A stretch of 63,423 nt of DNA, the filler included, from Folioceros fuciformis (taxonomy: Eukaryota), in NCBI GenBank assembly GCA_049999805.1. It is 3 parts of 2 records of this genome, joined end to end, with 100 filler letters (N's around TTAATTAATTAA, not from the genome) between each part and the next. Parts side by side here need not be neighbours in the genome. Positions count along the whole stretch, not along the records: positions 43,215 to 63,423 come from JBNGIO010006135.1; 2 more parts are not named here. The stretch is one strand, 5' to 3'. Below are positions 14,984-61,099 of this stretch, one piece after another; the first letter of the stretch is position 1; every line of letters begins with the position of its first letter. Under the pieces are notes generated by a model that worked only from the letters and a program-made list of their open reading frames with translations, ran no database searches and was not told where the DNA came from. Position numbers and translations under genes: made by a program.

Positions 14984-14995
14984 TTAATTAATTAA
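14984..14995. other. Artificial scaffolding linker TTAATTAATTAA inside an N gap
   Basis: The 12-mer gives stops in all six frames and is centred in a 100-base gap. An identical one is at 43159-43170. Confidence 0.9.
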
Positions 14996-15039
14996 NNNNN
15001 NNNNNNNNNNNNNNNNNNNNNNNNNNNNNNNNNNNNNNN

Positions 15040-32512: not shown

Positions 32513-35425
32513 ATGACGGGGCCAGGGCCGAAGAAGAAGCTTCATGTGGAGGTTGTGAATGCGCGGGCTTTAATGCCCAAGGACGGGCAGGGGTCCGCCA
32601 ATCCTTACGTGACGCTGGACTACGAGAAGCAGCGGATCCGGACCAAGGTGAAGGACAAGGACTTGAATCCGACATGGAACGAGAAGTTCGAGTTCATGCT
32701 GGCGGATGGAGGGGACGGGGTGCTGGAGGTGAACGTGTACAACGACAGGAAGATGGGCCGGCCGAGCGGGTTCCTTGGGAGAGTGCGAATTCCGCTCACT
32801 GACTTGCAGGTGAAAGGGAAGGAAGCAGTGAAGTACTTCAAGTTGGAGAAGCGGAGCCTCTTCTCCCACATCAGAGGCGAGATCGGGCTGAAGATCTACA
32901 CTGAAGACATACCTCCTCCCAAGCCAGCAGCTCCGGCAGCGGCAGGGGCAGCCGCAGCTCCAGCAGCAGCTGCTGCTCCCGCTGCTGCTCCCGCCGCAGC
33001 TCCCGCAGCTGCTGGAGCTGCCCCCGCCGCAGCTGGTGGTGAGAAGAAGGATGAAGGAGCGAAGAAGGATCCCGAGCCCCCGAAACCGAAGCCGGAGCCT
33101 AAGGTCGCAGCCTCGGTCGATCCGAAGGAGTACAACCTCAAGATGTCTGATGCCAGGCTGGGAGGAGCGGGAGAAATGCGGCAAACTCTGGCCTACGATC
33201 TGGTGGAGGAGATGCCGTACTTGTTTGTGAAGCTGGTGAAGGCTCGGGGTCTGGCTGCACACAAGGATGTAAAGGACGGGAATGCCACCAGCAGCGATCC
33301 CTATGCGAAGATCAGTGTTGGGTCTCTGTCTGCCAAGAGCAAGACGGTCACCAAGAACCTGAGTCCGGAGTGGAACCAGGTGTTCGCATTTTCGAAGGGG
33401 AACCTGCATGGTGGGACTCTCCAGATCGAACTCTTCGATGAGCCGGAGAAGCCAGAGAAGGACAAGCCTGCGAAGGACCCGGAATTCCTCGGCGTGGTGA
33501 TGATGGACGTTGGGGAAGTGCCTGTGAGGAAGCCTCCGGAGAGTCCCCTAGCCCCGCAGTGGTACAAGCTGGTTGGCCCAGAAAATCGTGTGAAGGGAGA
33601 TGTGATGCTGGCTGTCTGGATGGGAACTCAGGCGGATGAGGCATTCCAGGATGCGTGGCAGTCGGATACCGGTGGCAATCCCAACTTCAGATCGAAGGTG
33701 TACATGTCGCCTAAGCTGTGGTATTTGAGGGTGAAGATCATTGAAGCCCAGGATTTGCTCCCAGCGGAGAAGGGGAGGGTGCCGGAACCTAGCGTGAAGA
33801 CCCATCTGGGGTCTCAAACCTACAACACCAAGCCTTCTAAGAACCGGAGCACGAGTCCGTTCTGGGATGAGGACTTGATGTTTGTTGCTGCGGAGCCCTT
33901 TGAGGACGTGTTGCATTTGATGGTGGAGGACGCGGTGGGGCCGAAGAAGGAGCTGCTAGGACAAGTTAAGATTCCGCTGAATACTATTGAAAGGAGGATT
34001 GACGGGAGGCAGGTTGGGTCGAGGTGGTATGTGCTGGACAAGGATGACAAGGGGCAGTATAGAGGGAGGATTCACCTTCGGTTGTGTTTCGATGGTGGGT
34101 ATCATGTGATGGAGGAGAGCACCACCCACAGCAGCTGCATGAGGCCTGCTGCGAAGCAGCTGTGGAAGCCGACTGTAGGGATGCTGGAGCTGGGAATTCT
34201 GGGAGCTACGGGGTTGCTTCCCATGAAAACCAATCCGGTGAACAACAGGGCCAGCACGGATTCCTACTGCGTTGCGAAGTATGGGCAGAAGTGGATCAGG
34301 ACCAGGACCATCACTGAGACATTCAATCCGAGGTGGAATGAGCAGTACACTTGGGATGTGTATGATCCATGCACTGTGCTTACGGTTTGCGTGTTTGATA
34401 ATCGACATCTGAGTCCTACTGACAAGCCGGATGCTGTGAAGGATGCTTACATTGGGAAGGTGAGGATCCGGTTGTCTACTCTGGAAAATGACAGGGTGTA
34501 TACCAATCTGTATCCCCTGCTAATGTTGACACAGTCCGGCGTGAAGAAGCATGGGGAGCTGGAGCTGGCTGTGAGGTTCTCGGTGACCTCTACTGTGAAT
34601 GTGATGCAGATCTACCTCCAGCCTCCTCTGCCTCAGATGCACTACTACCATCCTCTGGACCAGACCCAGCTGGAGTTTCTGAGGAGCTCGGCCATGAAGA
34701 TTGTGCAGGGGAGGCTGGCCAGGGCGGAGCCTCCTCTGAGGGCAGAGGTGGTGTCGTATGTACTGGATGCGGACAGTACCATCTGGAGCATGAGGAGGAG
34801 CAAGGCAAATTTTCACAGGATCCTGTCTGTGCTGTCCAGCGCCATCGGCGTGTACAAGTGGTTCCAGGACATCTGCAAGTGGGAGAGCCGGGTGACGACG
34901 GTGCTGGTGCATGTGTTGTTTCTGATTCTGGTGTGGTACCCAGAGCTCATCCTGCCTACGGCCTTCCTGTATCTGTTTCTGAGGGGTGCCTGGAACTATC
35001 GGTTTCGGCCACAGGCCCCGCCCTTCATGGACGCCAAGCTCTCGCAGGGGGAGCAGATCGGGGACCCCGACGAGCTGGAAGAGGAGTTCGAGGTGCTGCC
35101 CAACCAGAAGACGCAGGAGATTCTGAAGCAGCGCTACGACAGGCTGCGGAACGTGAGCAGCAAGATCCAGAACGGGCTTGGGGAGCTGGCTTCGCAGGGG
35201 GAGAGGTTCGAGGCTCTGCTCAGCTGGAGGGACCCAAGGGCTACTCTGGTGTTCGTGCTTTTCTGCCTTGCGGCCGCCGTGGTGCTCTATGTCACTCCCT
35301 TCCGAGTGGTAGCTGTGCTGCTGGGCATCTACGTCATGCGGCCTCCGAGCTTCAGAGATCCCCTTCCTCCCATTCCCCTCAATTTCTTCCGCAGGCTGCC
35401 TTCCAAGGCAGACAGAATTCTCTAG
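32513..35425 (+). CDS. MCTP: Multiple C2 domain and transmembrane region protein (MCTP; FTIP/QUIRKY family), intronless CDS, 970 aa
   Basis: It has four C2 domains (LHVEVVNARALMPKDGQGS, YDLVEEMPYLFVKLVKAR, SPKLWYLRVKIIEAQDL, GMLELGILGA). The PRT_C-type C-terminus reads PDELEEEF...LSWRDPRAT...NFFRRLP. Confidence 0.97.
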   Translation: MTGPGPKKKLHVEVVNARALMPKDGQGSANPYVTLDYEKQRIRTKVKDKDLNPTWNEKFEFMLADGGDGVLEVNVYNDRKMGRPSGFLGRVRIPLTDLQVKGKEAVKYFKLEKRSLFSHIRGEIGLKIYTEDIPPPKPAAPAAAGAAAAPAAAAAPAAAPAAAPAAAGAAPAAAGGEKKDEGAKKDPEPPKPKPEPKVAASVDPKEYNLKMSDARLGGAGEMRQTLAYDLVEEMPYLFVKLVKARGLAAHKDVKDGNATSSDPYAKISVGSLSAKSKTVTKNLSPEWNQVFAFSKGNLHGGTLQIELFDEPEKPEKDKPAKDPEFLGVVMMDVGEVPVRKPPESPLAPQWYKLVGPENRVKGDVMLAVWMGTQADEAFQDAWQSDTGGNPNFRSKVYMSPKLWYLRVKIIEAQDLLPAEKGRVPEPSVKTHLGSQTYNTKPSKNRSTSPFWDEDLMFVAAEPFEDVLHLMVEDAVGPKKELLGQVKIPLNTIERRIDGRQVGSRWYVLDKDDKGQYRGRIHLRLCFDGGYHVMEESTTHSSCMRPAAKQLWKPTVGMLELGILGATGLLPMKTNPVNNRASTDSYCVAKYGQKWIRTRTITETFNPRWNEQYTWDVYDPCTVLTVCVFDNRHLSPTDKPDAVKDAYIGKVRIRLSTLENDRVYTNLYPLLMLTQSGVKKHGELELAVRFSVTSTVNVMQIYLQPPLPQMHYYHPLDQTQLEFLRSSAMKIVQGRLARAEPPLRAEVVSYVLDADSTIWSMRRSKANFHRILSVLSSAIGVYKWFQDICKWESRVTTVLVHVLFLILVWYPELILPTAFLYLFLRGAWNYRFRPQAPPFMDAKLSQGEQIGDPDELEEEFEVLPNQKTQEILKQRYDRLRNVSSKIQNGLGELASQGERFEALLSWRDPRATLVFVLFCLAAAVVLYVTPFRVVAVLLGIYVMRPPSFRDPLPPIPLNFFRRLPSKADRIL

Positions 35426-36519
35426 AGAATTCTGCCTTCCCACGTCTCTCTTTTCTTTCCTACTTTCTTTCTTCCTGCCTGCCTTCGAAAGCTTCTGGTC
35501 GCGGACCCATTCCCTTTTGCGCATTCCTTCTTCCCGTTCTATGTAAGTTTTTTTTTGGCTCCACTGATGTACATTGCTGTAAATTCTCCTTCGGTGCTAC
35601 ATCCTGTGGCAGGGACTAGGACTAGGAAGCGGATACCATAGCGTTTTTAGCTTGCATTCTTAGCTTAGGGGGGAAGAAGCTTAGCTAGCAAGTCAGGGGA
35701 GGCAGATAGACTAGGCTGCCTCTGTGAGAAGCACATTTTTGTATCGCGCATTTGAGCTACGAGTTCAACAACGATGATTTCCTTGGATGTACGTGTATTC
35801 GTTGCACTTTCTTGTAGCAGAAGAGGCAAGAAAGTTGCCTCCTTCTGGAGGAGACGGTCAATTGCGAATGTGGTGCGAATGTGCCAGACGGAGGTGGTGG
35901 GCCTATGGCTGAGTCCAATTCTCCTCGTGGATGCTTTGTATATTATATATATACAGTATTGTTTACAAGTTGATGCCAAAATCCTCAATGAGTCTCACAG
36001 GGATGATGACTTATATATGACCTTGGGGGTGGTCGCAAAATGTCTTGGCGGAGCAATCTGAAATCATGAGAAAGCACCGAATGAGCAAAATGTGCTGTGC
36101 AGATTTACGACGGCAGCGTACCTCTCTCTACGCGGGGTGTGGTAAATCTGAGCGCAGACTTGGATCTGGAACGTCGAATGACGTCGTAAGGCTGGAGCCC
36201 GGTTATATCGCCTCATGAGGTCAATCATACATCAGCCGTCTTGAATGATTTCAATGCTTCTCACCTGTGCGCGCATTCACTGTGGTTGGCAGCTTCCCGT
36301 CTCTGAAATATGGAATGTGCGGTGTTGTGAGTTTTGTGTGCCAACGACCCTGCTTCACGCACCGATCGGGAAAGGTGCTTCTGCACGAGCATTCAGACTG
36401 GAAGCAGTGCAGGGTTGGGTTGTGGGCAGCACTCAGGCTGGAGCAGTGAGGGAATAATCGTTGTAGAGTGAGTGGGCTTTGCCTTGGTGTGGGAAGGTTA
36501 GCTGGGGTTCCAGAAGGCT

Positions 36520-42997: not shown

Positions 42998-43158
42998 GTG
43001 AGTGAGTTCTGTCACCGTGATATGAAGGTCCCGCTGCTTTGTGTGCTTCTCCACTCGCCTTTCGAACATGCTAGGTTTTGTGATTCTAGGAGGAGGGAAG
43101 GAAAGGTTGGACCTNNNNNNNNNNNNNNNNNNNNNNNNNNNNNNNNNNNNNNNNNNNN

Positions 43159-43170
43159 TTAATTAATTAA
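43159..43170. other. Artificial scaffolding linker TTAATTAATTAA inside an N gap
   Basis: Same 12-mer as at 14984-14995. Confidence 0.9.
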
Positions 43171-43609
43171 NNNNNNNNNNNNNNNNNNNNNNNNNNNNNN
43201 NNNNNNNNNNNNNNCTCAATACCGCATCATGGTATCAGAGCCACCTATAGCGTGGATTGCATTCTAGAGAATGCGCATCAAATTGTGCACATTTGGATGT
43301 GCACAAACATGTGTTTTTGGCTCTTATCTTTTTAGAAATGTTCTTTAAAGATAGCCCAAAATAATCAAGAACTTAAAAACTCTGATTTTCATCTTTATAG
43401 TTGAATTTGCCTGCTTTAAAATTGCATCTTGCAGATATGGTGAGCATTCTAGCGTATCTATGCCAAATTGCTATTCCAGCAATTCTGGAATAGGTGCGCT
43501 AGGACACCCGTCAGATGCTACAACTTGCAATTAGAAGGCATTTATAAAATAAAGAAAATAAGGATGCATTCTAAACGCATCCCTACAATCAGAGTTACAG
43601 CCATCACAA

Positions 43610-44341
43610 ATGGCACAGAATGAAGGCCAGATTTGGCAACCATGGCCTGCTGAGCGGGTTCAGCGTAACCGCCCAACAAGAGGACAGCTTAATGACAGGA
43701 ACGTAGCAGAACGACTTCATCAAAACACACAAGAGTGGCTTTACAGAAACCAAGACAGACCTGCTCACAGGAGTCGTCTACGCGAAGCCCACAATTTGCT
43801 GGTTTCAACACTCTACCCAGATTACCAAAACCTAATTGCTGATTCTCAAGAGCAGGTCATAGGCGCTGATCATTTGAACTTGCGCCCCAGAGTTGCTTTA
43901 GATGTTTACGGGAACCCTAATGGTTTTCTCACAACACAGCCTACACCACAAGCCACAATCACACAGATCATTTCCAGGGTGGAATCACATGCCTTGTTTG
44001 TAGACAGAAGATTTGTTAATCTCAACAAAAGCGTGGCCAGTGTGAATGTGGACTTACAGGACTTGAGGGAGCAACTCTGTCATTTGGACTACAAGTTGCA
44101 CGTTCTTCTGAAGCCAGAACTTTTGAAGAATCCAGAATTCCGCACATTTGCTATAAGATCTGTGAAGTATACTAACGGCAGTCAACGCCTTTATAACCCA
44201 CACTCTTGTCCTTCATGTTCTACCTACGAACTCAATAGGCACATGTCAAGGAAACAGCAAATAGCAGAACAGGAAGCACAACAGGCAGCCAGTTTGCATG
44301 AGGAAGTCAGACCTTTCAACATGCTAGCTGCCCTTTTGTAG
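43610..44341 (+). CDS. Extra ORF (243 aa) between PBS and gag of Copia D; function unknown
   Basis: It is intact from ATG to TAG and ends 53 nt before the gag ATG. It has a heptad-like segment (LNKSVASVNVDLQDLREQLCHLDYKL) and HSCPSC. Confidence 0.7.
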   Translation: MAQNEGQIWQPWPAERVQRNRPTRGQLNDRNVAERLHQNTQEWLYRNQDRPAHRSRLREAHNLLVSTLYPDYQNLIADSQEQVIGADHLNLRPRVALDVYGNPNGFLTTQPTPQATITQIISRVESHALFVDRRFVNLNKSVASVNVDLQDLREQLCHLDYKLHVLLKPELLKNPEFRTFAIRSVKYTNGSQRLYNPHSCPSCSTYELNRHMSRKQQIAEQEAQQAASLHEEVRPFNMLAALL

Positions 44342-44394
44342 CTTTGTCTCTGCATACAGGCCAGTAGTTTTCATTTCCCTCTAGACCTCCAGCA

Positions 44395-47300
44395 ATGGGA
44401 GACACAGCCTCTTCATCATTTGTGGGAGGTGGGGAAAGCTTTAAGGAGAAAGACAGGTTCGATGGATGCCAATATGACATCTGGGTTATGCGCATGAAAG
44501 GCGCACTCCAAAGTAGAAAACTGTGGAAAACAACACAAGGGTTAGATAAAGCACAAGTAGCAGAAACATCTCAGGAAAAGGAGGCACGTGAGCAGAGAAA
44601 TGAAGCTGCTATGTACCTCATAAGAAGTGGACTCACAGCCGACATGATGCATCAAACATCAGGTTGTGAAACTGCTAAAGCAATCTGGGACCGCCTGGAA
44701 GAGCTATATGCTGGAAGAAATTCTGCCAGTCAACTATCAGCCCTTAGTAACCTTCAGCAGTGTAAGATGCGTGAAGGAGAATCTGTAGAGAAGCATATCA
44801 TGACCTTCAGAACCTTAGTCTCCAAGCTAGAACAAGCTACTGGCGAAACAATCAAGGATGAGATGCTAACACTTTACCTGTTACTCTCATTACCTCCCTC
44901 CTGGTCACATTTTGTGACATCAATTCATGCATCCCAGTTACAGGTAGCTAAATTGGCTAAGTTAGCTGACCTCAAAACACCAGAATTAACATTTGCAGAA
45001 CTTGTAGGGTCACTCCTGGAAGAGGAGGCGACAAGAGGTGTATCAGGCAGGCGTGCTGGCAAGCAGCAAGCGCTGTTTACATCCAACCGTGGTCGAGGTG
45101 GTGCAAGACCATACTCCAGAGGCGGTGGATCTGGTTCCTCACGAAGTGGCAGCTCGCAAGGAGGCCACTCATCACAATCTGCAAATAGGAAAAATAAGAA
45201 ATCAGGGACCTGCAACTGGTGCAAAATCCCTGGTCACTGGGAGAGGGATTGCAGGAAAAAGCAAGCAGGCTTACCTTGCAAGGAGGGAAGTACTGAGACT
45301 AATGTTGTGGTCAAAAGGCAACCATCGCCATCAGCGCTCATGGTTGGGATAGAGGGGTATGCTGACTATATCTCTTCACCCACATGTCTGTCAGCTAAAA
45401 CAACTGCTGGACGGTATAAAGAGTGGTACCTTGATACAGGAGCCACTGCTCACATGTGCTTCAACAGAAATGCTTTCAAAACATACAGGTCAGCTAAGGA
45501 CCAGTATGTTTACCTAGGTGATAACAGATCACTAATCTCTCCAGGTATAGGGACTGTTGAGTTGCCTGTGCCTTCTGGAGTCATGCTTCTACTTATGGAT
45601 GTGTATTATGTTCTTGAGATGACACGCAACCTCATTTCTGTTAGACGTCTCAACATAGACAATAACAGTCATATACTGTTCACAAACACAGAGTGTAAGG
45701 TGATAGATGCCTTTAATCCCAGCAAAGTCCTAGCTTACGGGTCCTCAGAACATGACCTGTTTCGCTTGCATACCAAGGGTGAGACAGTGTAGTCTCATCT
45801 CACACATGAGGACTCCCCTGCCTCTGCACAACAGATAGCAAAGACTAAGTTGTGGCACGCACGTCTAGGTCACCCACACAGCAGCAAGTTGCAGATATTA
45901 GCTGCTAGTGACCTCTATGCTGATGGTTCTATAGGCAAGTTAGTACCCTTACCTCTTTGTGAGCCATGTGTCCTGGCTAAGTGCCATCAAGCAGCTTTCA
46001 AGAATAAAGCTCCTCACAGGGCTTCAGAAGTCCTGGAGCTGGCTCACACAGATCTGTGTGGCCCCTTGTCTAAGCCTTCTCTTGGTGGTGGGAGATACTT
46101 CCTTACCTTCACAGATGACAAAACACGTTTTGTCAGTGCTTACATTCTTAACGCTAAAAGTGATTGCTTCTCACACTTCAAAGCTTACCTTAAGTTTGCA
46201 GAACGCTGGACAGGGAAGCAATTGAAAACCCTACGTTCAGACAACGGTGGGGAATTTACCTCACATGAATTCCAGGCTTTCTGCACTGAAGAAGGAATTG
46301 GTCGGCAGCTAACAGTTGTGTATACCCCTCAACAGAACGGGGTCGCAGAGCACATGAACCTTACTTTGCAAGAGATGACCTCCTCATTGTTGAACCATGC
46401 TCACCTCCCTTTGTCCTACTGGGAAGAGGCCCTCACAACTGCTGTTTACCTAAGAAACAGGTTGCCCACTAATGTTGTCCAAGGAATGACTCCCTACGAA
46501 GCATTTTATGGACACAAGCCCAAGATCCTTCATCTCAGGACATTTGGCTGTGTAGCTTATGCCTTTGTTCCTAAGAAAAAGCGCAAGAAGCTGCAGCACA
46601 AGGCCAGAAAGTTGCTGATGTTAGGTTATACTGAAGGCATCAAGGCATATAAACTGTATGATGTGCCTACAAATACTGTTACATACTCCAGGAGTGTTAC
46701 CTTCGATGAACACAGTTTCTGGCCAGTGGGAGCTTCTGATGACACTGATTCTCCAGATGACAATTGGGAATCTCTTGACCAGGATGTCTCATATTTTGAT
46801 GGCCTCCCTGCGGACGTTGCTCCTGCAGGTGGGGAACATCAGGATCCGCCCACACATGAGGATGAATCTGCACATCAGGATGAACCTGAATTTGACGTTG
46901 CTGATCTAGTGCAGCAGCAACATCCTCGTGAGCCCTTACCTCCACTTGATGAGGAAGAGGTCATTGCAGTAGAGTCTGATTCTGACGATGCTGCAGATGA
47001 GGTCGCTCTTGACATCCAGGAACCACAGTATGCGCAGCCTGATCCACCTGCTGCTCCACCTGAACCCCGTTATCCCCAGCGTGAACGTCGTCCTCCCAAC
47101 CTCTATCAATCTTTTGATTTCAGGTCACCTCAAGCACATGCTGCTTTACTTGATCCCCTTGAACCACAGTCATATGAGGAAGCTCTCCGGAGGCCTGATT
47201 CTGCAGAATGGAAGAATGCAATTCAGGCTGAATATGACTCATTGATTAAAAACGGGACTTGGGAATTGGCCAAGTTACCTCCAGGTCGAAAGATGGTATC

Positions 47301-48749
47301 CTGCAAATGGGTATTCAAGCTCAAGGTCAAAGCTGATGGTACTTTCGACAGATATAAAGCTCGGCTAGTTGCACGAGGCTTTACACAAGTACCAGGGCTT
47401 GATTATTTTGAAACATACGCACCTGTTGTAAAGATGGCCACCTTTCGTACCATATGTGCTATAGCAGCACACAAAGACTACGAATTGCAGATGTTCGACG
47501 TCAAGACAGCCTTCCTACATGGAAGGCTAGACACTGAGATCTACATGCAGCAGGGGGCTATGAGGTAAAAGGGAAAGAGGACCATGTCCTGCAACTTATA
47601 AAAACGCTGTATGGCCTCAAACAGTCAGCACTAAAGTGGAATGAGGCTCTTGATGAAGTGGTTCTAGCTTTAGGCTTCATCAAGTGTAAGGCTGATGGGA
47701 GCCTCTACGTATACAGGAAAGGGGACACTTTATGCTATTTAGCAGTCTATGTGGATGACCTGATCATAGCCTGCAATAGTGGAGCATACATAACCAAGCT
47801 CAATCTATTACTGGCAGAGAAATTTGAGATGACCAATCTAGGTCCTCTGCAGAGTTGCCTAGGGGTTCACATACAAAGGAACAGGGACAAGAGGGTCATA
47901 ACCCTTACCCAGCCTAAGTACTTACTTGACAGTGCAGAACAGATGGGTTTAAAAGACGCGAAACCTGCTTCTACCCCACTACCTACAGGACTCAAGCTTA
48001 GCCGCAACATGTGCCCTGAGACACAACAAGAGAAAGAAGCTATGAGTAACATCCCATACAGAAGAGGAGTTGGTAAATTAATCTATGCTTCTAATACAAC
48101 TAGGCCCGACATTTCTTTTGCCACTAGCTGCCTGTCCCAGTATCTTGAGAATCCAGGGCAGGAGCATTGGCAGTGTTTGAAAAGGGTATTCAGATACCTA
48201 AAGGGGACCTATGATGTGGGACTTAAGTATGAATATAGTCCCGAGGCTCTAGACCTAGTAGTTTACACAGACTCTTATTATGCTGGTGATATTGACTCTA
48301 GAAGGTCAGTGTCAGGCTATGTAGTAAGCTTTGCTGGAGGGCCCATATGCTGGAGTAGCAAAAAGCAACCCACTGTAGCCACCTCAAGCACAGAGGCTGA
48401 GTATCGGGTGTTAACAGCAGCAGCTAAGGAAGTAATCTGGCTCAAACTACTGTTCAAGGAAATGGGACTGAACCTTTCTACATGCACAAGTGTTAAGACC
48501 GACAATCAGGGCTCTATGGCACTTGCTAAAAACCCAGTGTTCCATTCAAGGATTAAACATGTTGAAGTAGAGTACCATTTTATACGGGAACAAGTGTCTG
48601 CAGGCAAGATTGTGCTAGAATATGTTCCCATAGCTGACAACCCTGCAGACATACTTACGAAAGCACTGGGGAGAGACCTGCACACCAGACACCTAAAAGG
48701 TCTAGGGTTAGGGAAGTCTGAAGACTTCTTGCAACCTCACAAAGTCTGA
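44395..48749 (+). pseudogene. Copia D gag-pol, disrupted by one in-frame TAG (45790-45792) and one frameshift (~47555)
   Basis: Motifs: CNWCKIPGHWERDC knuckle, WYLDTGATAH protease, WHARLGH and RSDNGGEF...QQNGVAE integrase, YKARLVARGF and YVDD RT, and an RNase H ending ADILTKAL. Confidence 0.95.
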
Positions 48750-49814
48750 AAAACATAAAAGGCTATGCCTAGTAATCCCAGCTGCCACGAGAGCTGGAAT
48801 TGTTGCTTTCCACCTGAATCGAATCAGGGGTCTTGGGGGAGTTGTCCTCATCACTGTCTGAACCACTGAATCTTGTCTCTGGCTCACTGCTGTTGGTGAA
48901 GCTTTCGCCAGACTGTGAGCTGTGGCTTTTAGAAAATGCAAAGCGAACTTCCTCACGAATTCGCTGTTCAGACCCTGCATATGGTGACAGCAACAGTATT
49001 GTTACGAGCAGTGGGAGCAAGGCATAAACATGACTGCTAAACGGCAATCTACACATACGTAAATCACATGAAGGACGTTATACTTACAGTAAAAGCTGAC
49101 TATGTGCCCTGGAAATTCTTTGCAGGGCTTCACCTTGACCCGCTTCATAAGGATGCGGCTGAAACGGCATCTGTATCATAGCGAGGTGCCAGGATTGCGC
49201 ATGCTTCCCAAACCCACTATCTTAGTTTCCTCCAGATAGTTGATCACTTTCGGAAACAGCAGGGGATTTGGAAGCTGGCCTTCAGTCTTAGCATATTCGT
49301 ATTCAGGCTCTGAACGGGCACCTCTGGCAGACCTGGAACTTGAAGCAGCATGCCGAGACGGCTCTGGCATCACAGTCGTAACAGCTATCTCGCAGCCTCT
49401 CGCAGATCCTCTTCCTCGGCCGCTGCCCCGGGGACGACCTCTCGGACGTTTAGCTGGTTGCTCTTCAGATTCGCTTGTGTTCCTGACAGGTGTCCGAGCC
49501 GCTTTGGGTGCGAATTGCCCCTTGCTGTTACGCACATAGGTGCGCTGCTTGTGGGGCGCTGCATCTTCAGAGGAAGACGGCATCTTGAGCAGGAAAATCT
49601 CGAGCCTGAGCTGAACGATAAGCGAAAGGGTGAAAACGAGGTTTAAAAGGGAGGCGCACCTCAGTACGAGGGACTGCATGCTGGCTGCCTCCATAGCACC
49701 TCCAAGCGTGAGATAGATCGTAATGGATTGCAGCGTACGCAGAAGTGAAGGCACCGAAGCTGAAGTGACAGTCACAAGGGGCACGAACTGAAGTTCTAGA
49801 AGACTGTTAACCAC
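48708..49814 (-). CDS. Antisense accessory ORF of Copia D: open 49176-49814, continuing in frame past two stops to 48708
   Basis: It has an AT-hook-like KRPRGRPRGS and YVRNSKGQFAPK. Past the TGA at 49176-49178 the same frame reads ...YVCVDCRLAVMFMPCSHCS*QYCCCHH... Confidence 0.55.
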
Positions 49815-49838
49815 TCAACTTGCTTCAACAAGTGGGAG

Positions 49839-50066
49839 TGACGAAATAAGGGTTGTTAGTGTGTTATCAGCATGTTAAGTAGTTAAGTACATTAAGTTAA
49901 GTTATATCAGCTTACCCTTTCATTAGGCTTACGTCCTTTAGATGAACAGTCATACCTTTTCAGGTTTTTAGTTTTAGTTTGCTTTTCTGCATAAGCACTT
50001 ACCTTTCTTTAATGTATGTAAGATGCAATTATATTAATTGATCTGCGTTATCTCAATACCGCGTCA
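49839..50066 (+). repeat. 3' LTR of Copia D (228 bp)
   Basis: It has perfect inverted termini TGACG...CGTCA and follows the PPT directly. Confidence 0.92.
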
Positions 50067-50149
50067 TTAAGGACAATTTTGAGAGGTACTGATGATTGCT
50101 GATGATTGTTGGTAGGGGCAACTAGCCTTGTCCAAGGGGTAGCAAGAAA

Positions 50150-50285
50150 TTAGGGTTAGGATTAGGTTAGAGTTAGGCTTGGCTTAGGTTGCTCTTAGGA
50201 TTAGGTCGAACTAAGATTAGGTCAGAGTTAGGGTTAGGTTAGGTCAGAATTAGGTTTAGGTCAGAGTTAGGGCGGCTTAGGTTAG
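50150..50285. repeat. Degenerate TTAGG/TTAGGG-rich repeat tract
   Basis: ttagggttaggattaggttagagttaggc...ttagggttaggttaggtcagaattaggtttagg. Confidence 0.7.
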
Positions 50286-50809
50286 AGAGAGATTGCTAGG
50301 CGGTTGACTGAGGCTAACCCTAGTAGACAGAGATGGGGGTTTGGGCCAAGGGTAGTATAAGAGGCTAGACCTGCCATTGAGGAGGGGTAGTCTTATGGTG
50401 TGATTCCCCTTGACCTTGTGTGCAGGCTACCGGATTAGAGTGGCTGATCCGGTTTGAGACTAACCAAGGGCTTGATCCCCTTTGCCATTAGGGGGACGTA
50501 GTGGATCCCTAGACTACTGAGATTCGTGTGGCCGGATCCGCAATGGCTGACCTCCTTGCATGCTAACTGAGGTAAGGTTGCAGGGCCGTGAGCCAAGAAG
50601 GCTATCCAACCCTCTGCCTTGAAGGCTGCAAGGGGGAAGGCTGTTGTGTTCCAAATTCCAGGAGAGAAGGGTTGAGTTGCATATTTTGGGAGTGGAAGTG
50701 TTGAGGTGAGGAGTGGAGCTGAAGTGAGGTGCTAGAGTGTGAAGTGAAGTGCTAGAGTGAAGGACTGAAATGCTGGAGTGAAGTGCTAAAGTGGTGGAGT
50801 GGGGTGCTG

Positions 50810-52004: not shown

Positions 52005-54353
52005 GTGGAGGGCGACCGAAGTGGACGAACGACGGGCAAGAGCGTAACTGCGGCTAGCACAGGCAAGAGCGACGACGATCGATCAGGAGAGCACGGAGCA
52101 GCGGCGACCGAACCCGCGACAGGCAGACATAAGGCCCAGGGAGAGATGGCGCGTGTGAGAGGAGCATCGCGGCTGATATCGGGAGATGGCACACAGGAGC
52201 AACCTCCTGCACCAAGGGTCGAAACAGCCTTCTGGCCAAACATGGAGCACTTGCGGGTCAGGGCCGAAGGGCTGGTGGAGGAGTTGGGCCTCGGATTCAT
52301 GACCCAGCGCTGGAATCATGCAACTCCAGGCTTGGTGCAGGAGTGTGCTCAGCAACTGAGGAGCCCGGCCAGAGAAGAGGGGATCCGAGGGAACTCGCAG
52401 GAGTGGAACCTGAACATGGTGAGGAGGGTGTATGGATGCAGCATGGAGGAGGAAGGAGGGCTTGTCCTCGAGTCCCTGAAGAAGAGCACGACAGCAGCGG
52501 CGCTGGCGCTGTTCAAAACAGGAACCATGAGGGAAGCCAATGGATGGGTTGGCCAGGGATCTAGCGACAGCCCAGTTGATGGGACTGGCGAGGTGGCTCC
52601 TCTGCTTCCTACAGATTCGGAAGTAGGACTACCTCTTTGACTAGATGCTGTTATTCGTGCATGAGGTGGTCAGGGTAGCTGGGTGGATTGGGGCAGGATC
52701 CTGTATGACAGGATGAGGGAAGAGAGGCAGAACCTGGCCTCGTACTCACCTTGACCATCTCTGATTTCTCCATTTCTTGCTCATTTCTATTGCCATGCTA
52801 ACCTTCTGACTGAGGTGGAAGTAATCGCCTCATTGCACATGTGGAAGCCCCTTAGGGAGATAAAATGGAAGCCTGTGGAGCCAAAGGAGGTGGACTCCAG
52901 TAGCTGGGAGGCTGAGGGGACAAAGAGCTCAGAGGAGGAGACCCCATCCAGCACGAAAAGGAAGGTAGGGACAGGACTGAGGACCCTTGCCAAGCGGAGG
53001 AGAAATGTCAGCCAGGTCACTAGGAGAACGGGGGAAGCTGTGCAGCAAGAGGCTGTCTAGGAGCAGGCCAAAAGGGAGCAGGAGGTGCCCCACGAAAAGT
53101 GGCCAGAGGAGGATACGACTGCGGCAGACGTGGAGGCCGAGTTAGGGCCGGCTCAGGTACAAGAACCCTTCCCAGGGTGGGAGGGGATTTTTAGGAGTGG
53201 CCCTTTGACAGCCAGGCTGCAAGTGGAGAACCTGGCGAGGGTTCGGGAGATGCTAGGACAGCAGGTCATCAAGAGGAGAATGCCTTCGGAACGCGAATCG
53301 CAGCAGGTGGACCTGCTAGGCTTGACCGCGGAGATGGTTCAGGCCCAGGCAAAAGTGTTGGACCAAGCTGCCAGGGCTTTGACCTGGTTAAGTATGCAAG
53401 GTGAGAAGGAAGCCGAGAGCCGGGAAAGGTTAGCCGAGTCAGAGGCAAGTTGACAGCTCTTGGAAGAGACCCGACAGACCTTGAGTGCGGCCAAGGAGCA
53501 GGCAGAGGAGGAAACCTGCCAAGCAAGGAGGCAGGTACAGGCGCTGAAGGAGCAGCAAGAGACGCTCCTAGCTCAGGTGAGAGAGGCCCATGGGACTAAC
53601 CTAGAGATGCAGCAGGAGGTCTTAAGGGCCCATGAGCAGGAAGCATCTACGGTGGAGCGAATGCACAAGCTGGCGGAGAGATATAAGCGGGAGCGGGACG
53701 AGGCCCAAGACAGAGTGAAGGGGAAGGCCTAGGCCCAGCGGAGTAGTCGAGTTGCAACGCCGGTAGGTGAAGAAGCTACCGGTCGTGGAGCGGCAATGCC
53801 GGTAGCTGAGACCCCAACCCCGGTACCTGAAGAGGCACTCGCTAAGGAACCTACCGTTCGAAGGTCTTGAAGAGCAACTCCCACCAAGAGGGCGGGGCAA
53901 GGAGGAACTACAGCTGGAGGGATGGAAGATCCTCCAGCGCCTCCAAGTGACAGAGGGCAGACAGCCCGGAGTAGCCCACGGGAGGAGGGGGTAAGCACTT
54001 CCTTTGCAACAGAGGGTCGGATTGTGTTGCACTACCCAAAGGAGGACACTTATGTGCCCGGCCTCTATGTGGATGGAGCCCGTGTGCTGAAGTTAACTGT
54101 ACATGTGCGTGTGGGCATAGGAGGGACAAGAGGCTACTGCCTGCAGCTAAGGACCTGCAGGGGGTCCTTCTTCCACTGCTGTCGGGTGTGGGGGCTGCCT
54201 CGCTACTATGCCAAAGCAATCCTGGAAGAGCTGACAGAGGAGGAGGCGCAAGCATGGGTCGATCGGGAGCCAGTGCTTGTCCTCAGCAACCAGCCATGGG
54301 AGGCGAGGAGGAGTCCTCCGCAGCGGGACCCACCTACGCCGCCGCTGCCATAG
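52005..54353 (+). pseudogene. Degenerate extra ORF of Gypsy element E (helical domain, coiled coil, conserved C-terminal domain)
   Basis: Consecutive same-strand ORF pieces (52005-52640, 52815-53060, 53085-53453, 53460-53732, 53922-54353) are separated by single stops or frameshifts. Motifs include VDWGRILYDRM and SPFLAHFY. Confidence 0.7.
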
Positions 54354-54564
54354 GTAAGGAGTGACAGTGAGGTGGAGATCCTCAGGGAGGATCTGTCCGA
54401 CCAACCGTAGGGAAGGAGAGCCTAAGGTGGGCGGCTAGGAGGAAGAGCAAGAAGGCCGGAAGGAAGGCGGGCGCGGAGATGAAAATAGACGATAGTAATT
54501 GCATCCTAGATTCGAATCTTAGAAAATCTCTAGGAAATGCAACCCTGAGAAGTATGAGGGGCGA

Positions 54565-54980
54565 TTGGATTGCACTTGGGACTGTGAATAGAACCGCGGA
54601 GTGCCGCGGGATCGACGTGTGTTAGTTAGGCATCGGAGGTGGGTCCCACCTCGGTAGCGGAGTCGACTACCGGTAGTAGAAGACCCGTCGGTAGCTGAAG
54701 GGTCGGTAGTTGTAGAGCCCCCTACCCCGGTAGCTGAGCGAGTCCCGGAGGCGCAGAGTTGGGTGGCGGTAGTTAGGCCATCTGGGGGTAGTGGTAGTGG
54801 AACCTGGAGGTAGCGGGTCTAGACATAGATAAGGATTGTCCTAGGTAGTAACTGACTTTTGAAGGAAACCCATGCTACTTGACACAAATCATTCCTTTGG
54901 GATCGAATCCCTGAGCTATAACGACAAAGAGGGCTTGTGTGGACCTCGCAGCACCCCCGGGTGCAATATTTTCCCCCACA
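54565..54980 (+). repeat. Gypsy LTR copy (3' LTR of E); start approximate
   Basis: It aligns by eye with 61100-61493 (e.g. CACAAATCATTCC.TTGGGAT.GAATCCC, TTGTGTGGACCTCGCAG) and ends in CA. Confidence 0.75.
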
Positions 54981-56150
54981 AGGTCTCTCCTCCCTTATTC
55001 CCCAAACTAATTGCCGCATTTCGAAATTCTGATTGAGGAAGCACGTAAGCGAGGATGAAAGAGTGAGATGAGTGAGTTGGATGAGTTGTGTGAGTGAGTT
55101 GAAAAGAGAAGAGAAGGAGAGTAGAGTTGAATGACCTCCTTGGTCTGAGGGGGCAAAATATCAAGAATGTTAGGTAGGTGCAAGGAGCAGGAGAAAATCG
55201 GTTTAGAGGATCTAGTTGAAATAACTTGAGTGGTCACAATCAATCAGGTGGAGAAGTCTCACAAACTGTTAGAGCTACACACAACAGACTGAAATGCTGA
55301 AATCGATAAGTTGAAGGTGGCTAGCATCTAGAACAGGAGAGTCAAGATCAAGGAGGTTAAGACAATGGAGAAAACGTAAGGAATAAGTGAAGCAGAGGCT
55401 TATAAGGAATTTCAGTTGGATGCAGTTGTTTGCGAGGTGGACATTGAAGATGTATTGAAGGTAGAATCTGTACAAAGAAAGTACAACACAAGGTTTGGAG
55501 ATCAGAATAAGGATTATGGAAGGACGTTGGCGGTAGGATGGAAGTATCTAAAATCATTTGAGGTTTTTAGATGTGGATGTAAAAGATTTTAGTAAGAAGG
55601 TGCGTGATAGAGAAAGGAAGGTGATAGATCAACAGGGGAGTATAAAGACACAGATGTTGCAGAGTGATTTGATTTGCTATATTCGAAGCATGTTGGAGAT
55701 GGGTGTCAAGGTGGGAGTGAGCGAAACAAAAATTCGAGATCTTTTGTAGATATCAGATTAGTCTAACGAGAGTAGTAAGTTGGACAAGCGATTTCATTCT
55801 ATTTAAACAGTGATTATCAAGATAATGAAGAAAGGTTGACAGTTAGACCTGGAATTGCATTTTTGGATACCAATGGATGAGGCTGAGGCAAGTCAGCAGT
55901 AGCAGGAGGAGATTCGGCAGACCTTGAGTGCAGCAAAGGAGCAAGTAGAAGAAGAAGCCTGCCGAGCTCGAGAGGAAATGCAGATGTTGAAGGACCAGCA
56001 GGAATTGCTCCTGGCTCAAGTAAGAGAAGCCCATGGGACCAACCAAGAAATGCAGCAGGAGTTGCTAGGGGCCTAGGAATAGGAGGCGGCTGCAGTGGAG
56101 AAGGTGCAAAAGCTAGCAAACAGGTACAAGCGGGCACGGGAAGAAGCCCG

Positions 56151-59100
56151 TGAAGAATCGCTACAGGAGCTACATGGTGAAGGAGGAGAGGCAAGGAGGA
56201 GGAGAAAGGAGAGGTCACACTCTCACACAGAGTCTCAATATGCAAGGGAGATCAAGGGGGTATTTATACCCTCTAGAAGAGCTCCCTAGAAAGCTTCACA
56301 AGAAGCACACAGGAAGTTGCGCAAGAAGCTTCCTACAGATTAACTTAAGCTAATCTAAACTAATGATACTTAATTAGATACTAATCTTAGACTAAACACA
56401 CTAGTCTAAGCACATTGGGCTTTAATAACCCTACAACCTCCCACTTAAAGGCTAATTTACCTTCATAGGAGAGTGGTCTACCTCATGCCCATGAGTGTCC
56501 GAGCTTGTGCGAATTGCTCCGTAGAGAGCCCCTTGGTAAGAACATCTGCAAGATTTTGACTGGTGTGAACTTTGGCAAGCTGTACCCTCTTGTCTTCCAA
56601 CACCTCCCAAATGAAGTGATACTTCACTTCCACATATTTGGTCTTTGCATGAAATACTGGATTCTTCGCCAATTGGATAGCACTCTGGGTATCACAATGC
56701 AACACTAGTAGCTCAACCTTGATCCCCAAATCTCCCACTAAATGAGCAAGCCACATGGCTTTCTTGCAAGCCTCAATCGCTGCAATATACTCAACCTCTG
56801 TGGTAGATAACGTTATGTACGATTGCAAACGAGATCGCCATGAGACTGCCCCTCCAGTGCACATGAAGACATAACTTGATGTGGACCTCCTTTTGTCCAT
56901 ATCCCCTGCATAATCAGCATCCATATATCCCATGACAGATGCATCGTCACTACCAAAACATAAGCACAAAGCTTTCGTACCATTCAAGTACCTCATAACT
57001 CCTTTCATTGCCTCCCAATGCTTCCTGCCAGGGTTTGACATAAACCTGCTAACCACTCCCACTGCAAAGGCAACGTTAGGACGTGTAGCAACCATTGCAT
57101 ACATCAAACTCCCTACAGCTGATGAGTATGGAACCTTCTCCATTTCAGCTTTGTCCTCCGTAGAACTGGGGCAATCCTTGCTCGACAGTTTCACATATGG
57201 AGGCAACGGAGTACTCAATACCTTCCCCTTCTCCATATTGAAACGTTGAAGCACCTTGTTAATGTATTCAATCTGAGACAAGTCCAGCAAATGCTTCTCT
57301 CTGTCTCGACGAATATGCATGCCAAGAATATGGCTTGCCTCTCCCAAGTCTATCATGTCAAAGCGAGCATTCAACTTTGACTTCAACGCCGAAATCTCAT
57401 CACTATTAATCCCAACAATTAGCATATTATCCACATAGAGGACCAGAATGAGCAAGCTTCCATCCTTAGCTTGCTTCGTATAGAGGCAATGATCCTTCTC
57501 GCTACATTTGTAGCCTTGAGAAAGCATAAACGAGTGGAACTTGTAATACCACTCCCTGGGTGCCTGCTTCAAACCATAAAGGCTCTTCTTTAACCTGCAC
57601 ACCAAATTCTCTTTGCCCTTCTCAATGAAACCCTCTGCTTGCTGCATGTATACCTCTTCCTGGAGATCACCATGTAGAAATGCCGACTTCACATCCATAT
57701 GGACAAGTTCCATGTCGTTCCTCGCAACTAGAACAAGAACACATTGTAAGGTGGTCATTTTGACAACTAGTGAGAAAATCTCATCAAAGTCAATACCTTG
57801 CTATTGCTTTAAACCCTTAGCAACCAATTGTGCCTTGTACTTGGGTTTGCCATAATGGGGTATGTCCTTCACCTTATACACTCATTTGCATGGCAACGCC
57901 TTCTTGCCCTTAGGCAACCGAACTAACTCCCAAGTTTGGTTCTTATGGAGCGAATCCATTTGTGTCTACATCGCCTTCTCCCACTTTTCCTTGTTAGTCA
58001 CTGACATGGCCTCTTGATAACAAGAGGGCTCCTCACAATCCGTCAGCATGACATAATCAAGAGATGCAACATACCTGTTAGGAGGACGTGAAGTCCTTCC
58101 TGACCTACGAAGCACTGGCGCCTCGAACGGAGCTGGTTGCACTCTCTCCTCTTCTACAAGTGGAGGCAGTTGTTCCTGGACATCACGATGTTCAACCTGC
58201 GCGGGACGGTCAAATCCATCTTCTTAGAAGACCACTCATCGCACCTCCATAGTTGGAGTAGGCTTCTTGTGCATCTTGGTCTCATTGAAGAACACGTCAT
58301 TGCTGCGAACAACCCTCTTGGCCTCTGGATCCCACAGACGGTATCCCATCTCACCAGATTCACCATAACAAGAAAAATACATTTTCTTGACTTGGGAGCC
58401 AACTTGTTCCAAAACTCCTTCGGAACATGGTAGTATGCCTCGCAGCCAAACACTCGCAGATGCTTGTATGACGGCTTCTTTCCAGACCACATCTCCTCTG
58501 GAACTTGCTCATCCACAGCCCTATTAGGAGATTTGTTAATAAGATGCACCGCAGTAACCACTTCTTCTGCCCAAAATCCGTTAGGCAATCCAGAGTTTGA
58601 CAACAAACTACGCATCCTCTCCTGGATGGTCCTGTTCATCCATTTAGCCACACCATTCTGGGGAGGAGTCTACGGGGCAGTCAACTCTCTCTTGATTCCC
58701 TTGGAATCACAAAATGACTGGAAAGCCTTCAAAACATATTCTCCCCCATTGTCTATCCTTAGACGCTTCAGTCGGAGGCTAGACTGATTCTCCACAAGGG
58801 TGACGAATTTTTGAAACACTATCAGAACATCATCCTTTTTCCTCAAAGGATAAACCCACACCTTGCGTGAGAAATCATCTATAAAAGTGACAAAATAGAT
58901 GCACCACCTAACGATACATTGGACATAGGTCCACAAACGTCACTGTGAACCAACTCAAGAGGTTTACTTTTGTGTTTACCTCTTGCTCCATGTGGTGACT
59001 TCATTTGTTTCCCATATAAACAGTGCTCACACATGGAGAAATCGGAGAAGTAAAAAATAGGGACGTAACCAAAACGAACTAAGATCTTCATTCCTTTTTG

Positions 59101-59429
59101 AGACATATGTCCTAAGCGACAATGCCACAAGGAAACACTTGGCTGTTCCGTTACACAAATCATGGTGAAGGAGGAGAGGAGGAGGCAAGGAGGAGAGGAG
59201 AAAGAGAGGTCAAACTCTCATACAGAGTCTCAATATGCAAGGGAGCTCAAGGGGGTATTTATACTCTCTAGAAGAGCTCCCTAGGAAGCTTCACAAGAAG
59301 CGCACAAGAAGCTGCGCAAGAAGCTTCCTACAAATTAGCTTAAGCTAATCTAAACCAATGATACTTAACTAGACACTAATCTTAGACTAAACACAGTAGT
59401 CTAAGCACATTGGGCTTTAATAACCTACA
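56151..59429 (-). mobile_element. Ty1/Copia element F (Tnt1/Tork-like), internally deleted (no PBS, gag or protease), with a 5-bp TSD
   Basis: The TSD GCCCG is at 56146-56150 and 59430-59434. The 3' LTR is 56151-56435 and the truncated 5' LTR is ~59161-59429. The PPT AAGTGGGAGGT is on the minus strand at 56436-56446. Integrase fragments and an RT-RH ORF are present. Confidence 0.95.
56478..57758 (-). pseudogene. RT-RNase H portion of Copia F pol
   Basis: Motifs: HMDVKSAFLHG, LKKSLYGLKQAPR, LYVDNML (catalytic DD changed to DN), VPYSSAVGSLMYAM and NLADVLTK. Confidence 0.9.
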
Positions 59430-61099
59430 GCCCGGAGCAGGGTGAAAGGAAAAGGCAAGGCCAGATGAAGTAGCCGAGTTGCGGCGGAGGTAGCTGAAGA
59501 GGCTACCGATCGAAGAGAGACCATGCCAATAGAGGAGAGCCCAACCAAGGTAGAGGAGGGCAACAACCGTCGAGGAACCCGTAATCCGTAGGGCTGGGAT
59601 GGCAACCCACACCAGGAGGACGGAGCAGGGTGGAGCAGTAGCTGGGGGGATGGAAGATCTTCTACTGCCATTGGAAAGCAGAAGGCAAGCAGTTCGGGAT
59701 AGCCCACGGGAGGAGGGGGTAAGCACCTCATCCGCAACAGAGGATTAGATTGTATTGCAGTATCCAAATGAGGCCACTTATGTTCCTCGCCTTTATGTGG
59801 ATGGAGACCATGTGCTAAACTTAACTGTCTATGTGCATGTGGAACTAGGAGGGACGAGGGCCAACTGCTTGCAACTAAGGACTCGCAGGGGGTCCTTCTT
59901 CCACTGTTGTCGAGTGTGGGGGCTGCCTCCCTACTTTTCACAGGCAGTCCTGGAAGAGTTGACGGAGGAGGAGGCACGGGCATGGGTTGAGCGGAGCCTG
60001 TGTTGATCCTCAGCAACCGGCAACGGGAGGAGAGAAGGAGTCCCCCTCGACGGGACCCACCCACGCCACCACTGGAAAGGTCAAGCAGCAGCGGCAAGGT
60101 GGAAATAATCCAAAGTGTATAAGAGGCATGTTGGTGCCTAACTCAGTAGCAAGAAATCAACGTTCCAAACTCGAGGAAGCTTGGCGAGGCCGTTGCCGGA
60201 CAGGGAGATCTGGGCAAGTGAGTGCGTGCAGTGTTCCTAGGTGGTGGTGTGCGAGGTTTCTTTGCTTTGCGACGGGTGGTTCGGGGGACAAATCAGGAGG
60301 AGGCTCCTCACTGAGTGGAAGGCAAACGTCCCTGCTATTCCTGGTACTTCGTATTGTGTGTCGCAGTAGGAGCGATGGGGGATGAATCCGCCGATTGCGG
60401 AGTGGAATTGGGCACTTGCTTCCCTTATTCCCTGGCTTTCCATCTGCTCTTCAAATAGCGGGTGAAAAGTGAGTTAAGGTGAAGGTGGGCTGCGTGTTGG
60501 AGTCGGAGGAGAGAGACAAATCCGCTGATCGCGGAGTGGAGGGAGATTCCATCCCTCCCTTATTTCCCAACTGTTGGTTGTGACCCGGTCCTAGCATTGG
60601 AGTGAGTAAGTGTTCGAGTGAAACTAGTTGAGAAGGAGAAGCGAGTGAGTGAGTGTGTGAGCTGAGAGGTGAAGGTGAGAGATCGCGGTGTTTGCAGGGA
60701 GGGAGGCAAATTCGCCGACTGCGGAGAGGAAGGAGTGTCTCTCCTTCCCTTACTTCCCGAACTGTTGACCGTGAATGAGTGTGCTGTGAATGTTGAGTAT
60801 CTGAGAGAATGTTGAGGTGGTGACGAAGTTATTGAGAAATCGCTGAAGGAACTTTGAAGTGTGGGAAATATTGTCCCAAGTCTATGGTATGAGAGACTGT
60901 TGGAAGGTTGCTTGGGGGTCATGGATGTTGTTAAGGACAAGTGTGGGCTGTGAGGAGTGACTGTATGTTAGAATCGGCATGTGTGGAAGTGCTGTGTGGG
61001 TGTAAGGTGTGTACGCTCATGGAGTCAGACTGTCTAAGTATGTAACTGTGGGGTGTTAAGTAACTTCAACGCGCTACCCTGGGAAATCGGGCAAAAACC

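Follow-up and report, generated by a model that had tools for sequence, protein, structure and literature searches.

The last third of a 63,423-nt stretch of DNA from the Folioceros fuciformis assembly GCA_049999805.1 (the whole stretch is referred to here as the window) opens on a Ty1/copia long terminal repeat (LTR) retrotransposon at positions 43215-50066. This element raises the question of whether the two open reading frames (ORFs) that flank its gag-pol region are genes. One of them, ORF1, lies in the sense orientation in the leader upstream of gag, and the other lies in the antisense orientation between pol and the 3' LTR. The initial annotation treated these ORFs and gag-pol as a three-gene architecture and proposed a Copia lineage with accessory proteins. 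With modest confidence, we read the locus as a single defective Ty1/copia copy in a green-plant genome. Its 5' LTR is cut by the contig end, its lineage has no close relative among the databases that were searched, extra sequence lengthens its internal region at either end, the ORF1 in its leader is a genuine or recently genuine orphan, and its antisense ORF is most likely a product of chance.

ORF1 looks like a real or recently real coding sequence, judging from its length, its composition, and its codon usage. The null distribution for ORF length was taken from 5,000 dinucleotide shuffles of the leader (for ORF1) or of the 3' region (for the antisense ORF). None of the leader shuffles reached the 259 codons that ORF1 spans between stop codons (null median, 92; maximum, 227). 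Over the 729 nt of ORF1, its own frame contained no stop codons, compared to 9 to 15 in the other five frames. The predicted product is a protein of about 28 kDa with an isoelectric point of 9.05 and without a hydrophobic segment.

The codon usage of ORF1 was scored with a model that was trained solely on the element's own gag-pol; pieces of gag-pol were scored by leaving each one out in turn. ORF1 scored 0.13 bits per codon, the gag-pol pieces scored 0.11 to 0.16, and pieces of other Copia elements in the window scored 0.02 to 0.16. Of the 376 long ORFs that the shuffled leaders yielded, only 6 reached the ORF1 score. The 3-base periodicity of ORF1 was 3.39, which compared with 2.85 to 3.71 for gag-pol pieces, a null 99th percentile of 3.28, and 1.1 for the part of the leader upstream of ORF1. 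In addition, the GC contents at the three codon positions of ORF1 (0.56, 0.37, and 0.44) followed the gag-pol pattern, unlike the host pattern, which is GC-rich at the third position. The start codon of ORF1 is in a good context (A at -3 and G at +4) and is preceded by eight short upstream ORFs.

The part of the accessory-protein proposal that concerned the 5' ORF gained support from length, codon usage, and periodicity, whereas the antisense ORF resembled the null. The antisense frame is open for 212 codons, a length that was reached in 16 of the 5,000 shuffles of the 3' region. Its codon score (-0.08) equaled the null mean, and 439 of 924 null ORFs reached that score. Periodicity was 1.4 in the 172-codon ORF that runs from ATG to stop and 2.87 in the 212-codon frame that runs from stop to stop, with the latter falling between the 95th and 99th percentiles of the null. 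The local GC content was 0.55, and two sense frames across this DNA likewise lacked stops for about 100 codons. The predicted product has a hydrophobic N terminus (residues 9-27, Kyte-Doolittle [KD] value of 2.13) followed by a tail that is basic and of low complexity and includes an RGRP run, and no homologs of it were found in protein and Pfam searches. Taken together, the sequence statistics suggest that the antisense frame most likely stays open by chance, in non-coding DNA of higher GC content, and that it is not a third gene.

A protein-coding gene elsewhere in the window also bears on how such frames arise. An MCTP gene of 999 codons without introns, encoding four C2 domains and PRT_C, occupies 32426-35619, and its non-coding frames are open for 325 to 375 codons on both strands. 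This shows that long spurious ORFs arise easily in GC-rich parts of this genome. The contig neighboring that of the element carries this plant-type MCTP gene together with an ENT nucleoside transporter gene, which identifies the host as a green plant.

The gag-pol region showed the Pfam order Retrotran_gag_2, zf-CCHC, Pol_BBD (the protease barrel), gag_pre-integrs, rve, SH3_retrovirus, and RVT_2, which was followed by RNase H motifs. The catalytic motifs were intact (CCHC, DTGA, HH-CC, D-D-E, YVDD, and the RNase H D/E/D). Judged by domain order, by these motifs, and by a primer binding site (PBS) directly after the LTR end, the element is a member of Ty1/copia (Pseudoviridae). The nearest gag proteins in the databases were plant proteins with 24 to 33% identity (seven matches with E values of ≤1e-10). 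The gag-pol reading frame is broken twice, by a TAG at the protease/integrase junction (45790-45792) and by a frame change within 47538-47568 in RVT_2; one of these lesions adjoins a G run. Therefore, the copy is dead or mis-assembled at two points, and it lacks the intact gag-pol of an autonomous element. As for the three-gene layout, both extra ORFs were found where the initial annotation had placed them, in the interval that runs from the PBS to the polypurine tract (PPT), but gag-pol was not a single open gene.

Table 1. Positions of the parts of the Ty1/copia element and of the adjoining spacer, counted along the window
Feature	Positions	Strand	Remarks
Artificial spacer, N44 + TTAATTAATTAA + N44	43115..43214	.	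Cuts off the element's 5' LTR; identical copy at 14940-15039
5' LTR stub, final 15 nt	43215..43229	+	14/15 bases identical to the 3' LTR end (50052-50066)
PBS, TGGTATCAGAGCC	43230..43242	+	Directly 3' of the 15-nt LTR stub
Leader, 1152 nt	43243..44394	+	8 ATGs ahead of ORF1, 20 ahead of the gag ATG
ORF1, 243 codons from ATG	43610..44341	+	259 codons stop to stop from 43562
gag (Retrotran_gag_2, CCHC knuckle) and protease region (DTGA, Pol_BBD)	44395..45792	+	Ends at in-frame TAG 45790-45792
Integrase (gag_pre-integrs, rve, SH3) and RVT_2 profile positions to 100	45793..47568	+	Same frame as gag
Remaining reverse transcriptase (RVT_2 positions 102-242, YVDD) and RNase H	47538..48749	+	Another frame
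3' internal region, 1104 nt	48750..49853	+	From pol stop to LTR; longest sense ORFs ~100 codons (99-100)
Antisense ORF, 172 codons from ATG	49176..49694	-	212 codons stop to stop from 49814
PPT-like purine-rich tract	49830..49853	+	Read from the sequence
3' LTR, TG...CA, AT-rich	49854..50066	+	213 bp; 228 bp if the start is the TG at 49839

The window is made up of three contigs joined by identical spacers, and the linkage that it shows across a spacer is not physical. The first base after the second spacer is 43215, and the 5' LTR and its flank are missing at this contig edge. The end of the 3' LTR was confirmed by the 5' stub, and its start was inferred from the TG and the PPT. A repeat search revealed no LTR pair (no families of at least 40 nt were found, and none of seven short families was an LTR) because only 15 nt of the 5' LTR survive. 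We take the PBS to be of the full tRNA-iMet 3'-end type; a tRNA scan found no tRNA genes in the window, and no Rfam family matched it. The leader and the stretch downstream of pol are both long by the standards of Copia elements. When the leader, ORF1, the 3' region, the antisense ORF, and the LTR were used to look for a second copy within the window (tblastn, blastn, and blastp), only self matches were found.

Several observations weighed against the reading of ORF1 as a coding sequence, one being that this copy is itself dead and that its ORF1 may be a relic. Others came from related contigs in sequencing runs. Two DNA runs of one sample, which may be the assembly's own data, contained about 80% of the element's words, and many relatives with 80 to 95% identity were present among their contigs. 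Relatives were compared by alignment coordinates, among the matches listed. The relative with deeper coverage was about 20% diverged and aligned at 81 to 82% identity over 43913-44094 and 44261-44528, whereas the remainder, including parts of ORF1, fell below 80%; it also had a net change of -1 within 44095-44260, which is inside ORF1. A second related contig covered 43936-44650 with 10 gaps and a net change of +4, and a third had 13 nt in place of 99 nt (44153-44251). Hence, length changes that were not multiples of three occurred over ORF1 in all three of these contigs, among the matches listed. In the case of gag-pol, two long diverged contigs (849 and 1224 nt) both showed a net change of 0, and in the case of the antisense region, the same set of matches held no informative diverged contig. 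The related contigs seemed to lean against a conserved ORF1 frame; however, length changes of this kind are weak evidence because most copies of any retrotransposon are dead. The relative with deeper coverage was also collinear with the leader (1298 nt compared to 1302 nt in the window), and this collinearity over 1.3 kb indicates that the long leader is a family trait and not a one-off insertion.

Two runs gave information of a different kind. Run X3 differed from 43215-50600 mostly by C>T (577) and G>A (369) changes; it looks like a bisulfite-type library, in which the apparent divergence is not sequence divergence. None of the listed runs is recorded as RNA; run X4, which we guessed to be RNA, covered only short conserved pieces of pol and the downstream satellite and says nothing on expression. 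This satellite is a degenerate TTAGG/TTAGGG-like array at 50131-50600, directly 3' of the element, and its summed contig depth was in the thousands in all four runs, run X4 among them.

The homology and structure searches also failed to favor ORF1. A word-indexed protein search yielded no ORF1 homologs, an exhaustive HMMER search against 1.84 billion representatives yielded two matches that were both translated tandem repeats, and a Pfam search yielded nothing below an E value of 0.07. Atlas feature scores for ORF1 were at most 0.81, with a recognition value of 1365 compared to the 2300 that most real families reach. The single-sequence AlphaFold model was mostly helical at low confidence, with a mean predicted local distance difference test (pLDDT) score of 36.7. 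The best PDB match (E value of 0.064) was to an engineered LOV domain and fell partly over a tag.

That match was followed up as a candidate LOV2/miniSOG likeness of ORF1 residues 96-177 (43895-44140) and rejected: the E value of 0.064 was obtained solely with the engineered, tag-aided variant, natural phototropin-2 gave values of 0.38 to 0.66, and there was no PAS match in Pfam. A metagenome scan with ORF1 produced 592 pattern matches, none of which was a relative, and one with reverse transcriptase-RNase H (RT-RH) produced a single locus (L001) that, at 29% identity, was too distant to use. Scans of viral contigs with RT-RH and with ORF1 produced nothing. Missing homologs of the two extra ORFs say little, however, because even the nearest gag in the databases is only distantly related, as noted above; the host and its near relatives are not represented there.

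The window contains other Copia elements, and the initial annotation saw two of them, Copia A (with a long coding-like leader) and Copia B (with an antisense ORF), as halves of the same layout. This view did not hold up, as both lie on another contig (the first) and neither has similarity to either extra ORF. Specifically, a blastp comparison of 323 window ORFs of at least 70 codons (E values up to 10) matched ORF1 and the antisense ORF only to themselves and to short noise. Copia A (54-2797, minus strand) has its PBS at 2797 and a 100-N gap in its leader. Its "coding-like leader" is the gag frame (1059-1886), which continues without a stop for about 165 codons ahead of the probable start (MANPPPP...); this extension is Ser/Pro/Thr-rich and has a codon score of 0.02, which is not clearly coding. 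Another Copia, whose pol ends near 5413, has an ORF of 228 codons in antisense orientation some 300 nt downstream of pol (5717-6400, minus strand). The codon score of this ORF was coding-like (0.118) and its 3-base periodicity was strong (4.25), both better than those of the antisense ORF at 49176-49694; it had no Pfam match and no similarity to ORF1 or to that antisense ORF. The 3' LTR of the Copia that bears it was not located, and there are N10 gaps nearby. Further downstream of the element described here, 225-nt direct repeats (56206-56430 and 59201-59425; 93% identical) flank a minus-strand Copia with integrase, reverse transcriptase, and RNase H only (56484-59136), and larger diverged direct repeats (about 53845-54980 and 59573-61493) enclose all of this. 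This arrangement of repeats within repeats at 53845-61493 suggests nested elements.

How else might the two ORFs be explained? One view is that neither is functional, such that ORF1 is a decaying remnant (of an old captured host fragment or of a former gene of the lineage, for example) that happens to be open still in this copy and the antisense ORF is due to chance in a Copia with expanded non-coding ends. The two disabling lesions in gag-pol, the ORF1 length changes in all three related contigs, the lack of ORF1 homologs in protein searches, the low fold confidence and low language-model recognition, and the eight upstream ORFs are all in line with it. The marginal LOV2 likeness (E values of 0.38 to 0.66 with the natural domain), if real, would hint at an eroded captured host fragment. 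We nevertheless regard this view as improbable, though well worth keeping in mind, because the codon usage and periodicity of ORF1 equal those of the element's genes and a long-dead frame would be expected to lose both. The absence of stops across 259 codons, set against 9 to 15 in the other frames, and a leader whose length differs by no more than 4 nt across 1.3 kb from that of a relative about 20% diverged also speak against it. Another view is that ORF1 forms the N terminus of a longer Gag, one resembling the gag ORF of Copia A, and that mutation or assembly error has split it off in this copy. The open frame upstream of the Copia A gag start gives it a precedent, and the present copy does contain other lesions, including the one beside a G run. 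However, ORF1 is separate from gag: it ends at a TAG (44339-44341), it is in a different frame, and the gag frame does not open before 44367. Fusing the two would take at least two changes in a stretch of some 30 nt, compared to two lesions in the 4.35 kb of gag-pol, and we conclude that ORF1 is not simply a split gag. The gag ATG also has a good context and lies 33 codons before Retrotran_gag_2, as in ordinary Copia elements. A detached Gag is therefore very improbable.

The other alternative credits both ORFs with a function. A true three-gene element would have an ORF1 and an antisense ORF that are conserved in the family, with the antisense ORF transcribed from a separate promoter, in the 3' LTR or close to it, and encoding a basic, AT-hook-like protein. 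Both ORFs exceed the bulk of their shuffles in length (0 and 16 of 5,000, respectively), and the length of the antisense frame, together with its periodicity of 2.87, leaves room for a fast-evolving real gene and so counts against our view of it as a chance frame. Moreover, the antisense frame has open stretches of 212, 57, and 97 codons, with single stops between them, across nearly the whole 3' region, and its product carries a RGRPRGSGRGRG run. The unrelated Copia with the 228-codon antisense ORF downstream of pol (codon score of 0.118 and periodicity of 4.25) and the antisense 3' ORFs without homologs that are known in Gypsy elements, at least one of which encodes a nuclear protein (PMC7264820, in part), can be cited in its favor too. 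Yet the antisense codon usage equals the null, the ATG-to-stop ORF has no periodicity, and the frames past the antisense stop read as cysteine-rich nonsense. The hydrophobic N terminus (KD value of 2.13) fits a DNA-binding role poorly, and the antisense ORF has no homolog in the searches made, no similarity to the Copia B antisense ORF, and a length under the 250-codon criterion of the field (PMC6317226, in part). On this evidence, a functional three-gene element is unlikely.

If ORF1 is a gene, the leader offers a candidate route for its expression. On genomic RNA that has not been spliced, ORF1 would be the first long ORF and would be translated, such that this unspliced RNA would serve as both the genome and the ORF1 messenger, and a leader-spliced RNA would serve as the gag-pol messenger. 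There are 20 ATGs upstream of gag, and ribosome scanning from the cap to gag is therefore implausible. The leader contains a single GTRAG donor-like site, at 43440, and an acceptor-like CAG (44392) that ends 3 nt before the gag ATG and has 16 pyrimidines among the 20 nt upstream. The candidate intron from 43440 to 44392 would remove ORF1. These splice sites are pattern matches, which counts against the proposal. The target of the ORF1 product would be the RNA or the particle of the element itself, and a basic protein without a hydrophobic segment, which is predicted at low confidence to be mostly helical, suits such a role. We offer this splicing model, including the role of the ORF1 product, as a tentative possibility. 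A broader version, in which a Copia lineage from plants that have been poorly sampled has two lineage-specific accessory genes, namely, a 5' sense gene for a basic protein expressed from unspliced RNA ahead of a leader-spliced gag-pol and a 3' antisense gene with its own promoter, seems distinctly unlikely. If it were true, it would invert the retroviral use of splicing, and the unrelated Copia with the antisense ORF at 5717-6400 would imply that antisense accessory genes arose repeatedly in Copia elements here.

The initial annotation was fair in its summary of the literature, in which sense env-like ORFs belong to SIRE elements among Copia and the published 5' and antisense ORFs come from Gypsy elements. 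Its suggestion that a lineage of this kind had not been described was too strong. The REXdb survey by Neumann et al. (2019) catalogued extra ORFs (eORFs) of at least 250 codons, in four classes of position and orientation, from 582 of 5410 Ty1/copia elements and placed them in 45 similarity groups (PMC6317226, in part). Nineteen of the 45 groups are SIRE 3' forward ORFs, and other Copia eORFs are therefore already on record (PMC6317226, in part). Among Copia elements, the main text of the survey characterizes the SIRE 3' forward eORF only, and most of the surveyed eORFs have no conserved domain, with a CDD match for just 21.4% (PMC6317226). The survey's length threshold would recognize one eORF in the present element (ORF1, with 259 codons), and the antisense frame (212 codons) is too short. 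ORF1 resembles the Copia eORFs of the survey in its stop-to-stop length, in its upstream forward position (the eORF-5'F class), and in having no conserved domain, but it differs in that it matches no protein in the databases searched.

Comparisons with individual groups gave partial likenesses. The element shares with SIRE/Maximus its superfamily and the extra sequence between pol and the 3' LTR. An eORF-3'F is present in 74% of SIRE elements (PMC6317226, in part), whereas the longest sense ORFs in 48750-49853 have 99 to 100 codons and the sole long frame is antisense. Its LTR is about 0.2 kb long, compared to 1.7 to 1.8 kb in the two Copia families of bean that are related to SIRE1 and carry an env-like ORF (PMC4093653, in part). 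The PBSs of Osser, Bryco, and part of Gymco-II are instead of the half-tRNA-Met kind (PMC6317226, in part). Ogre ORF1 and rice Retrosat2 ORF0 (PMC4093653, in part, for Retrosat2) are similar in being sense ORFs between the 5' LTR/PBS and gag, but they belong to Ty3/gypsy. The Plant mobile domain PF10536 is found in the eORF proteins of 57% of Ogre elements (PMC6317226, in part); ORF1 has no Plant mobile domain, Transposase_28, or Athila ORF-1 domain, and a Pfam search at E values up to 10 matched neither extra ORF to PF10536, PF04195, or PF03078. The domain order here is that of Copia and not that of Ogre, Retand, or Athila. The antisense ORF is similar in position, between pol and the 3' LTR, and in its lack of database homologs to gene23 of Grande (maize) and to the ORFs of RIRE2 (rice), Retand (Silene), and the bean ORF2 families. 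The Gypsy antisense ORFs are found in most copies of a family and are conserved about as well as other proteins of the element, and those of Grande and Retand are transcribed (Vicient and Casacuberta 2020; PMC7264820, in part), whereas the sequence statistics of the antisense ORF described here are like the null. Of the 15 bean families whose ORF2 is antisense, all are Gypsy and none is Copia (Gao et al. 2014; PMC4093653, in part). Our literature search found no paper on a Copia with both a 5' sense ORF and a 3' antisense ORF, and the per-element supplements of PMC6317226 may contain such elements.

The element is a defective member of an unsampled Copia family and belongs to a known kind, that of LTR retrotransposons carrying extra ORFs specific to a lineage. 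The finding consists of a single dead copy and a single orphan ORF that looks convincing, and it does not amount to a new system. Such extra ORFs have been catalogued, with hardly any function assigned to them; the published 5' and antisense cases are in Gypsy elements. If the 5' gene of this Copia family is truly conserved, the family would provide a compact system (about 7 kb, with 0.2-kb LTRs) for studying the function of such proteins, and also a system for studying how gag-pol is expressed behind a long upstream ORF.

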